Position numbers and translations under genes: made by a program
DNA from: Patescibacteria group bacterium
GTDB taxonomy: Bacteria > Patescibacteriota > Dojkabacteria > J137
Reading direction: 5' to 3'
Assembly (NCBI GenBank): GCA_963169855.1
Contig: CAUJCN010000001.1
Coordinates: forward strand, 17,828 to 81,827
Length of the DNA: 64,000 nucleotides
Shown here: piece after piece, positions 40,352-48,331 of the stretch
Layout of the letters: each line of letters begins with the position of its first letter
How positions within the stretch are numbered: the first letter of the stretch is position 1
Notes under the pieces: generated by a model
The model's input: the letters and a program-made list of their open reading frames with translations, nothing else
Database searches by the model: none
Told to the model about the DNA's origin: nothing

Positions 40352-43300
40352 CTAGTAACTTGAACACACATCGAAAACACATAATCTAGAGGCATTGTAT
40401 AGATCGACTTTGTTAATTTTACCTACAGGTTCGTAGTGATACTTTCCTGTTGGAACTATTTTTGCATTATCCCATAGGAGTTTACCGTTCGAATAATACG
40501 GATCGTGATATTTTTGCATTTCGATGTATTCATTATAAGTTGTGTATTCACCTACTATTATCTCAATTTTTAAAATACTCAACGAATCCACTATCTTCGA
40601 TAATTTTGTAACCAAACCTTTTCCAAAGCTACTCGGTGATAGAGGCTGTGGTAATTCTTTATATTCAACACCAGTTCGCAGTTCGATTGATTTTCCAGTT
40701 GGCTTCCAGAATGAATATCCGTCTTTATGCATTCCAAGCGCACCCTCATGGTTATAAAGTCTTCCAAAAGCTGCCGTTACTGCACCATTTACAAATTTAC
40801 CCCCACTTAATTCAGATATTGTACCTCCGATTGCTCCTGCCATTAGAACTCTTCCTTCCAGACTGTTTGGGAATGCATTCTCAACAAAGTAATCAGATCT
40901 TGATGTTAGTGCAGCACTTATAAACCCATGTTCAAATTTTCCTCCTTCTATTACACTTTTTGTTCCACCAACAACTCCATGTCCAATCATATTAGAAACA
41001 GGATCAGTCAAATATTTTCCAACCATTCCAAAAGCATTAGCAGTACCTAAAGATACAAATCCAGATGTTATTCCTGCCCTGAAAGCGTCTCCAATACTTC
41101 CACCATTTAACAAAGTTCCAGTGAATGAAGATCCAAATCCAAAAGCAAATGCACCAGCTGATGAAGCCAACGGTATATTGAACGTTGCAATTGCTACCAC
41201 AGTAACCACAATAGCTACACCTGCCTTCCAATTATCTTTTACAAAGTTAACAACATTATCTGCTTTCTCCTCAAACCAATCTTTTACACCTCCAAATAAA
41301 TATCCACTTGGATCAGTTAAGTTCAACGGATTATTCATTACGTAAGAATATCTATTGTAACTTTGAGTCATGCCTGGCTCCTGAATGAATGGATCTGCAG
41401 AAACAAATCTACCGATTACAGGATCGTAAACTCTTCCTTTCATATTTATCAAACCAACTTTGTCCAGTTGTTCGTGACCTGTAAATCCAATCTTACTTCC
41501 ACTTGTTACAGTACCAGAACTTTGCCAGTTAGATGATCTTCGTTTTCCCCAAGAATCGAAACTTAGTCTTTCTACTAATGCACCAGTCTGATCTGTAATT
41601 ATAGACAATGATCCTATGTGGTCGTAAAGCATGAATTTTGTTGTAGCAGTTCCTGTTTTTGGTTTTGTATAAGTCGCAATAACTTTTCCATTCACAAATA
41701 TATTATGAAGTTCTTCTGAGTTTGTACCAGTTGTTACTTTCTCGTAAAGACTTCCTATATAAACTGTTGTTGTAGAATTTCCGTTATCGTTAAGAACATT
41801 TTTATACAAATCTCCTGAAGGATCATAAGTGAACGTCTGACTTACAGTCGCCTTTGAAATTATCTTTACCTTATTAAATGATGTATAGGTGATTGATCCG
41901 TCACTACTTGTTATTCTGTTTCCATTTGCATCGTAAGTGTAAGAATTATTTACGTTTCCAGAAACCTGAGTAACTGCATGTGGCTTACTTCCGTAAGTGT
42001 AATTTCCAACGTCTGTTTTGTTTACAATATTTCCAATAGAGTTGTATGAAGTACTTACTGATTGCCCATTTATATGTGCCAAAGTTATTCTGTTTAATGC
42101 ATCGTATCCAAAAGTTTCTTCAACATTCTGAATATTATCTTTTCTAGTAAGTAAGTTTCCAAGTTGATCATAATTGTATGTTAGATTTTGCGTTCCAACT
42201 AAGTTTGCAAGATTCCCTGCGGTAATGTTCGTTAAGTAACCAGTTACATTATTGTAAGAGTAGTTAGAAATAATTCCGTTTCCTAAAGTTTCTTTCAACA
42301 ACTGACCTTTTGCGTTTAAAGAATCTAGTTTCCAGTAAGAACTATTATCTTTATAATTTTTTACTTCGCTTAATACTCCAAACCCATTATAGATGTTTGT
42401 AACAGCAAATCCCGACGGATAAATTAATGTTTTGTCTCGAGAGTACTGATCAAAGACTTTCGTAGTGACATATTTTACTTCATCTATTGTTTTTATTGTC
42501 TCGTAAGTTCTTCCTAAAGAATCGTAATTGAAATTTTCGGCATAACCGTTTTCAGCTGTAATTTTGTTAATTTTACCTAAAGCTTTATTTCCAATATCGT
42601 ACTCATAAACTACAACACCTTCCAATCTTTCAATCGAAGAAATTCTTCCTAACTTGTCGTAAGTTGTAGTTGAAGTTTGATTTTTTGCATCAGTGATTAC
42701 AGTTTTTTCACTAAAAGTATTGTAGAAATATTGCGTTACTCCTGTATCAGGATCGTTGATCTCTGTTTGTCTTCCCCGAATGTCGTACTTCATGTAAATT
42801 GTATTTCCCATTGGATCGATCGTGGAAATTAAATTTCCAAAGTTATCATATTTGCTGTGAACAGAATTACTGTAAACATCAGTGACTTTTACTACCAACC
42901 CAACAACGTTTTTCAAAGTTCTTGTTTCTTGTCCCATTAAACTTACTTTTGTTTCTAATCCTGTGTAACTGATTTGTTTATCACGATCACCCGGATAGGC
43001 TTCTCTTGTAAGTCTTCCGAAGTTGTCGTAAGTAAACTGAACACAGTTTTGGGTAGATTCATTTGCGAAGTATGGTTCACACTTTTTTGTCAATTGACCA
43101 AGATTATTGTAAGTAGAGTCTATATTAATCATTCTTCCATCAAATCCAAGTGTTTGACTTCTAACTTCACGATTTATAACATCGTAGAAAGTATTCATAG
43201 TTTGTCCAGAATTGTTATCAACTCTAACAAAATATTTTGCTCCAGCTGGACACAAACTTCCGTTGCACATTAAGTAACTTGTTCTTGAAGCTGATCCATC

Positions 43301-48331: not shown

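Follow-up and report, generated by a model that had tools for sequence, protein, structure and literature searches.

Which part of a very large Rhs protein would be its toxin, and how would the producing cell manage when no immunity gene stands beside it? We asked this of an rhs gene at 40352..48331 (minus strand) in a 64,000-nucleotide (nt) stretch of contig CAUJCN010000001.1; this whole stretch is referred to here as the window, and positions are counted from its first base. The gene is a single, unbroken open reading frame (ORF) of 2,659 amino acids (aa). An earlier note on this DNA had described a Tc-toxin BC-like RHS protein, with a glycine-zipper toxin domain of about 490 aa at its C terminus and no immunity gene next to it. 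Our analysis moves the presumed toxin to another part of the protein. We consider it probable that the gene encodes a Sec-exported Rhs/YD polymorphic toxin built on a Tc-toxin BC-like scaffold, in which a conserved pre-toxin module is followed by a toxic tail of about 130 aa that has no cognate immunity gene. The features discussed below are listed with their coordinates in Table 1.

The extent of the C-terminal region is set by the end of the Rhs-associated core. The aspartyl autoprotease motif of the core is intact (RVYD2303P...SAD2313P...NNPLNLTD2340PSG, also written RVYDP...SADP...NNPLNLTDPSGY, ending in TDPSGY), and cleavage at the core DPSG is predicted from this motif. The true core end is the DPSG at residue 2340, which gives a C-terminal region of 320 aa and not the approximately 490 aa given in the earlier note. 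A YD repeat reading YDPSGD lies further upstream, at residue 2170, and 2,659 minus 2,170 is 489; the longer figure very likely came from taking this internal DPSG as the end of the core.

Searching the 320-aa region against 5.8 billion proteins with a word-indexed search returned 102 matches at 28 to 48% identity, all of them to proteins of at most 558 aa. The protein's own 2,659-aa sequence was missed, a later search with the neighboring def gene did return its own protein, and the word-indexed search may under-sample long proteins. By local BLAST and alignment, nearly all of the 102 matches start at DPSGY and reach no farther than about position 190 of the C-terminal region (residue ~2529), and the end motif GGKF[AV]NGAVT[GA]AFxxLFN is present in 98 of them. 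The tails that follow this motif have a median length of 155 aa, and BLAST sorted the 93 that reach 40 aa or more into 83 clusters. Toxin domains recognized in the tails include Tae4, Tlde1/YkuD, EndoU, Ntox44, Hydrolase_2, Glucosaminidase, Peptidase_M91, DUF4225, and DUF2380. The module itself was found in Rhs C termini annotated from Verrucomicrobiota, Bacteroidetes, and Gammaproteobacteria. Because the glycine-rich region is conserved, ends at a fixed motif, and is then followed by unrelated tails, its sequence relationships identify it as a conserved DUF637-like pre-toxin module common to many Rhs C termini and not as the toxin, and the toxin domain that the earlier note had seen in it is not supported.

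The assignment to DUF637 (PF04830) is a weak one for the query itself, at 25.6 bits where the gathering score is 26.6; among the aligned homologues, 19 of 51 match the family at an E value of ≤0.01, with a best value of 2.5e-8. DUF637 has been listed among the pre-toxin domains of CdiA-type polymorphic toxins, where it forms a small helical domain ahead of the variable C terminus (PMC3482391; PMC4725963). The PT-VENN family (PF04829) gave no match in the C-terminal region, where the junction reads LYNHE and the family consensus is LFN. Structure prediction of the C-terminal region with AlphaFold2 and the homologue alignment returned stacked helical hairpins with GG turns (predicted local distance difference test [pLDDT] scores of 80 to 90 over positions 50 to 190 of the region), preceded by one transmembrane-like helix. 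No significant match to this model was found by Foldseek in the PDB.

The glycine content that drew attention to this region is confined to about 160 aa (residues 2366 to 2527: 17% G, 12% A, and 9% S). Strict GxxxG motifs occur there 4 times, against 4.6 ± 1.8 in composition-preserving shuffles, and small-xxx-small patterns 29 times, against 23.6 ± 3.1, a count reached by 6% of the shuffles; the last 132 aa of the protein hold no GxxxG at all. The glycine richness is therefore a compositional feature with no motif enrichment, and the abundance of GxxxG glycine zippers reported previously did not withstand this comparison. The module contains an internal repeat, GGTxSxxxGGKFxxG, and one strongly hydrophobic helix at about residues 2368 to 2390 (Kyte-Doolittle hydropathy of ~2.2). 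Weak matches to the Gly-zipper_YMGG and Gly-zipper_Omp families occur in a small number of homologues.

A membrane-active role of the module, as an aid to delivery and not as a toxin, is plausible by analogy. In Tde1, a type VI secretion system (T6SS) effector, a glycine-zipper segment ahead of the enzymatic toxin permeabilizes the membrane and aids delivery, and is not the toxin (PMC10240207). We propose a functional analogy between that segment and residues 2344 to 2529, one of function and not of demonstrated sequence relationship. The Tde1 segment differs in being N-terminal, short, and dependent on a specific GxxxG motif, whereas GxxxG is not enriched in the window protein. The membrane-active cargo of a teneurin-like protein, described below, offers a second analogy.

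The part of the protein that varies among strains lies beyond the module. We found two close relatives. One is a 6-kb contig (L002) from a wastewater metagenome-assembled genome (MAG) labeled "uncultured Candidatus Saccharibacteria" (study SRP286056, with municipal wastewater and river water samples), the only close relative among GTDB species representatives. The other is a 5.4-kb ENA contig (L003) that has the same gene order as the window, DUF4260-def-rhs. Both are 74 to 95% identical to the window protein in 100-aa segments of the shell and 78% identical in the module. Identity drops to noise right after FGRLYNHE(G/D)AL, and L002 and L003 share one other tail of about 135 aa. The comparison of C-terminal domains among strains that the earlier note had called for thus reveals polymorphism, with about 80% identity as far as LYNHE and unrelated tails past it.

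At the DNA level, the window and L003 are about 75% identical over 39425 to 40319 (the end of the DUF4260 gene, def, and 4 nt past the def stop) and again over 40740 to 43680. No alignment exists between the two at 40320 to 40739, an interval of 420 nt in the window and 692 nt in L003. Because DNA similarity breaks exactly there, we conclude that a discrete cassette, made up of the tail-coding segment and the 3' untranslated region, was swapped while the flanks on either side were conserved. Such a swap is what classically marks the tip of a polymorphic toxin. The strain-variable toxin slot would accordingly be the last ~130 aa, judging from these sequence comparisons, a segment that the earlier note did not single out. 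In a metagenome scan for further alleles, only distant Rhs proteins were detected (27 to 52% identity), with matches ending at or shortly after DPSG, and no new tails were recovered.

Both tails are orphans. An exhaustive phmmer search of the window tail against 1.84 billion representative proteins returned only its own protein and one artifact (P0111), a eukaryote-like repeat protein whose E value stems from seven copies of a 30-aa stretch and which we rejected as a homologue. The domain search suggested by the earlier note, run here on the C-terminal region and the tail against Pfam, NCBIfam, and PDB sequences, gave nothing beyond the weak DUF637 match. For the L003 tail, too, neither a Pfam or NCBIfam family nor any homologue was found. 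AlphaFold2 models of the window tail were unusable, with pLDDT values below 50 with an alignment and 31 from the single sequence.

The second half of the question concerns immunity. Neither the 36-nt gap between rhs and def, with its terminator, nor the C-terminal coding region on either strand holds a plausible immunity ORF. The antisense ORFs in the C-terminal coding region are short and begin with GTG or TTG; two of them, of 71 and 95 aa, were considered and rejected as immunity genes (GTG start, low complexity, and absence from L003). A gene concealed within the C-terminal coding region would have contradicted the earlier note, and none was found there. On the far side of the convergent def come two further genes, one for a DUF4260 protein (39346-39726) and one for a Pr6Pr membrane protein (38700-39290). 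Both were rejected as candidates; the DUF4260 gene is kept next to both alleles and is not tail-specific. In L003, with its other tail, no same-strand ORF lies between rhs and def.

Within the L003 cassette, between def and the rhs stop, an extremely lysine-rich ORF of 42 aa (MSAKDKGNQKVSPKDQNAKKPKSSKQAKEARKAKKAAKSAKR; L003 positions 1861-1989, plus strand) is followed by a hairpin. We rejected it as an immunity gene, as it is encoded on the opposite strand and nothing in the window corresponds to it. In a classical array of orphan cassettes on another contig (L030), by contrast, two of the three module-bearing cassettes have a small same-strand ORF directly downstream, and for the third none was called on that strand.

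Overall, the lack of an adjacent immunity gene is real, conserved across two alleles, and unusual, and on this point the earlier note was correct; syntenic L003 likewise lacks such a gene. With no immunity gene at hand, the producer is presumably not susceptible, which suggests, for example, a victim that is a different kind of cell.

The scaffold that would carry this cargo combines parts known from several toxin systems. Family and motif searches recovered the SpvB domain, exactly seven GD[FY]NGDG FG-GAP motifs (spanning residues 972 to 1298), the RHS shell, and the DPxG-terminated core, and the domain order bears out the description as Tc-toxin BC-like. The N-terminal DNRLRE-like carbohydrate-binding modules named in the earlier note are also present, as two copies of CBM96. 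In phmmer searches against solved structures, the shell matches those of Rhs, Tse5, Tre23, TccC2, and teneurin-like proteins. Like the BC components of Tc toxins (TcB-TcC, for example TcdB2-TccC3 and YenB-YenC2), the protein has SpvB, FG-GAP, TcdB_mid, an RHS shell, an aspartyl core, and a variable end of about 30 to 35 kDa. Unlike them, it consists of one polypeptide chain in which a putative signal peptide and two CBM96 modules precede this scaffold, the 64-kb window contains no TcA gene, and the variable region of the protein opens with a DUF637-like module that is unmatched in solved TcC cargos and whose relatives carry antibacterial toxins. In Tc toxins the variable region is an enzyme with eukaryotic targets, for example an ADP-ribosyltransferase; the tail of the window protein matches no family or structure.

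With the antibacterial Rhs and WapA toxins (T6SS RhsA, Tse5, and Tre23; WapA of Bacillus subtilis), the protein shares the YD shell, the DPxG cleavage motif, and a tail exchanged as a cassette. WapA leaves the cell by Sec-type export without a dedicated injector, and the window protein, with its putative signal peptide, would resemble it in this respect. It differs from the group in lacking a PAAR, VgrG, or LXG delivery marker, in its TcB-type propeller front end, and in having no downstream immunity gene in either allele.

The pre-toxin region of CdiA (DUF637/PT-VENN) is similar in that a small, helical, glycine-rich domain sits right before the variable toxin; here the module directly precedes the variable part, and its junction motif, ...NGAVTAAFGRLYN-HE, coincides with the allele break. 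In the window protein, however, the module sits on an Rhs core and not on a filamentous hemagglutinin stalk, its junction is LFN/LYN(x)E and not VENN, and its Pfam score falls just short of the gathering score, as given above. Bacterial teneurin-like proteins offer a further parallel as large, secreted proteins with a YD shell, a propeller, and an encapsulated, cleaved C-terminal toxin (PMC13018210). Only the YD shell aligns with them (9ifo/9pt5), whereas the front of the window protein is of the TcB type with FG-GAP repeats, and the window gene lacks an immunity gene immediately downstream.

On an unrelated metagenomic contig (L031, positions 2500-9317), SpvB, FG-GAP, TcdB_mid, RHS, and the pre-toxin module are spread over four adjacent ORFs, a split probably due to frameshifts in an assembly of long reads; behind them come small ORFs on the same strand (53, 100, and 174 aa). 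As this contig carries both scaffold and module, the combination is not unique to the lineage of the window.

Table 1. Features of the rhs locus, in window coordinates (residue numbers refer to the 2,659-aa Rhs protein)
Feature	Position	Strand	Basis or remark
N-terminal Sec-type signal peptide or signal anchor, residues 1-38	48218..48331	-	Putative, read from sequence; ends ...TVVYA, followed by NED
CBM96/DNRLRE carbohydrate-binding module 1, residues 75-249	47585..48109	-	PF24517, 1.6e-55 over two copies; NF033679
CBM96/DNRLRE module 2, residues 370-538	46718..47224	-	Family searches
SpvB (TcB N-terminal), residues 665-832	45836..46339	-	PF03534, 39.9 bits vs gathering score 22
Seven-bladed FG-GAP beta-propeller, residues 972-1304	44402..45427	-	Seven GD[FY]NGDG motifs; PF13517/PF01839
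TcdB_toxin_midN, residues 1297-1424	44060..44443	-	PF12256, 44.2 bits
RHS/YD-repeat shell, residues ~1425-2258	41558..44059	-	PF05593, 1.3e-33; TIGR01643, 1.4e-21
Rhs-associated core with aspartyl autoprotease motif, residues 2259-2343	41303..41557	-	TIGR03696, 71.7 bits
Conserved pre-toxin module, residues 2344-2529	40745..41302	-	Hydrophobic helix, then Gly/Ala-rich helical hairpins; ends in GGKFVNGAVTAAFGRLYNHE
Strain-variable orphan tail, residues 2530-2659	40355..40744	-	Presumed toxin domain; replaced in relatives
Intrinsic terminator hairpin GAGGGCC-TTCG-GGCTCTC plus T-run	40320..40337	-	Begins 15 nt past the rhs stop; within the nonhomologous cassette
Peptide deformylase gene def	39785..40315	+	Convergent; conserved flank of the variable cassette
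Sigma-70-like promoter, TTGACA-17-TATATT	48391..48419	-	Putative; consensus match at 11/12 positions, in the 207-nt divergent intergenic region
Two tandem TrmB-type helix-turn-helix regulator genes, 258 and 251 aa	48539..50070	+	Divergent from rhs; regulatory link to rhs putative

The gene neighborhood agrees with the earlier description. The convergent def, placed 37 bp from the end of rhs in the earlier note, is separated from it by 36 nt between the two stop codons, and the tandem pair of TrmB regulator genes is divergently adjacent upstream, with the first start codon 207 nt from that of rhs. Because it has its own promoter-like site and a terminator shortly after its stop, the rhs gene looks monocistronic.

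Taken together, these features suggest a path from export to target. The N-terminal signal peptide would direct the protein to Sec export, and the two CBM96 modules would probably attach the particle to a cell-surface polysaccharide; the founding member of CBM96 binds alginate (PMC9971899). The SpvB domain, the seven-bladed FG-GAP propeller, TcdB-mid, and the RHS shell would form a closed cocoon, to judge from the fold of solved Tc BC and Rhs structures. The aspartyl protease of the core is expected to cut at about DPSG (residues 2340 to 2343), and the resulting C-terminal fragment of about 34 kDa would be kept in the cocoon. The hydrophobic, glycine-rich module, with its one transmembrane-like helix, would most likely join the target membrane and help the tail across, and the tail, given its position and polymorphism, would be the actual toxic cargo. 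A producer that lacks the target or a route of entry would be spared, and the victim would be another kind of cell and not a sibling.

An explanation closer to the earlier note would make the glycine-rich hydrophobic region the toxin, as a pore former that disrupts membranes, and leave an accessory or targeting part to the last 130 aa; we judge it unlikely. Its appeal comes from the strongly hydrophobic helix followed by Gly/Ala-rich amphipathic helices, from the weak glycine-zipper matches of a few homologues, and from the existence of glycine-zipper toxins such as EsxX and CdzC/D. In addition, the C-terminal domain of a Bacillus inaquosorum teneurin-like protein is a hydrophobic, membrane-permeabilizing cargo with a transmembrane helix (PMC13018210), and a toxin conserved between strains would need no tail-specific immunity gene. 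However, some 83 unrelated tails occur behind the module, several being enzymatic toxin domains by themselves, and in the close relatives the module is the conserved part and the tail the polymorphic one. GxxxG motifs are no more frequent than composition predicts, the supposed zipper region is internal and not a terminal domain, and in L030 two of the three module cassettes are directly followed, beside the variable tail, by a small ORF on the same strand, where an immunity gene usually sits. A protein ending just past the module (P0067) was considered as proof that the module is toxic and was rejected; it adjoins insertion sequence (IS) elements, and proteins of this kind look like truncated orphan fragments.

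Two other explanations account for the missing immunity gene in different ways. The protein could supply the BC part of a genuine Tc toxin with three components, directed against eukaryotes (insects, nematodes, or protists), with TcA encoded elsewhere and no immunity needed. The order of SpvB, FG-GAP propeller, TcdB_mid, RHS, core, and variable region is exactly that of TcB-TcC, TccC2 is among the solved-structure matches, and Tc toxins are not known to have immunity genes. We nonetheless find this quite improbable, as no TcA-like or TcA-sized ORF occurs within the 64-kb window, and at its N terminus the protein carries a putative signal peptide of its own and a glycan-binding extension of 660 aa, neither of which is known as a feature of the cytoplasmically assembled TcB. 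The relatives of the module carry toxins of antibacterial, peptidoglycan-directed, or nuclease type, and the small downstream ORFs in L030 again occupy the immunity position. Very improbable, in our estimate, is that the protein is no longer a toxin and serves in surface adhesion or cell-cell recognition, as teneurins do, with an enclosed C terminus that is inert or otherwise used. The absence of an immunity gene and of a recognizable toxin fold would fit such a role, as would the N-terminal glycan-binding modules, and teneurins are an example of YD shells put to another use (PMC13018210). Yet the autoprotease motif is intact, and the tail has been swapped as a precise cassette between flanks of about 75% DNA identity, which speaks for diversifying toxin exchange and not for decay or a structural segment.

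Several observations weigh against our preferred reading of an exported polymorphic toxin with a pre-toxin module and an orphan toxic tail. Polymorphic toxins nearly always have an immunity gene adjacent to them, as do almost all teneurin-like proteins of bacteria, immediately downstream (PMC13018210), yet two alleles here lack one. A BC-type cocoon without TcA, a T6SS, or another injector would need some other way to release its cargo. The tail has no family, PDB match, or usable model from which an activity could be assigned, and its presumed toxicity is read from its position and polymorphism alone. The sample of homologues is biased, being skewed toward orphan C-terminal cassettes and fragmented gene calls.

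The nature of the producer may bear on the missing immunity gene. A more specific and rather unlikely scenario is that of a Saccharibacteria-like epibiont of the candidate phyla radiation (CPR/Patescibacteria), in which the Sec-exported Tc-BC cocoon would dock on host polysaccharide through CBM96 and deliver orphan toxins into the host bacterium through the DUF637-like membrane-insertion module, with no immunity needed because the producer would lack the receptor or target. This scenario depends on a Saccharibacteria-like (CPR) origin, which is weakly supported by one MAG label and one named match at 40% identity (the best named homologue of def, from Candidatus Saccharimonadales); this also counts against the wider reading insofar as it draws on that placement. 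If the scenario were true, the cocoon of an epibiont would be a polymorphic toxin used for parasitism and not for kin competition, and its release would be independent of TcA, the T6SS, and the type VII secretion system.

Other parts of the window show features of their own. A GC-rich island at 30000 to 34550 (GC content of 0.475 to 0.48 against a background of about 0.34) was possibly acquired horizontally. Its genes are one for a NUDIX hydrolase (30062-30523), two ORFs (30893-31840 and 31877-32986) without a family, and one, divergent and at 33102-34544, for a PurA-like adenylosuccinate synthetase. Among phages, the last is closest to "PurA-like" genes from phages of Mycobacterium smegmatis (33% identity). 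A second GC-rich patch at 2000 to 4600 (GC content of 0.50) holds an ORF at 2680-4572 (plus strand) encoding 630 aa, with a hydrophobic N-terminal segment, tandem PTVQPTTETP repeats, and a weak extensin-like match far below the gathering score. An Rfam scan of the window found no RNA genes; the GC-rich patches are therefore not rRNA. At 56221-60876 (minus strand), a tail-fiber-like protein of 1,551 aa has a Peptidase_S74 intramolecular chaperone domain (residues 1265 to 1316) and a C-terminal coiled coil, in a chromosomal setting without obvious phage genes nearby. At the window edge, a secreted protein of 583 aa (63-1814, plus strand) has no Pfam family and by eye resembles a right-handed beta-helix, like that of pectate lyases.

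What is noteworthy at this locus is the combination of a delimited pre-toxin module, an orphan and exchangeable tail, and an apparently self-contained delivery apparatus without immunity. The presumed toxin is relocated, in that the glycine-rich stretch that catches the eye is a pre-toxin module of wide occurrence linking Rhs cores to many toxins, and this relocation bears on the annotation of Rhs C termini generally. The locus and its relatives provide clean boundaries between module (residues 2344 to 2529) and tail (residues 2530 to 2659). Two Rhs alleles with orphan tails and no adjacent immunity gene, in what may be an episymbiont, make an unusual case, one that bears on how cargo is released from BC-type cocoons without an A component and on whether polymorphic toxins may serve attack on a host as opposed to rivalry among siblings.

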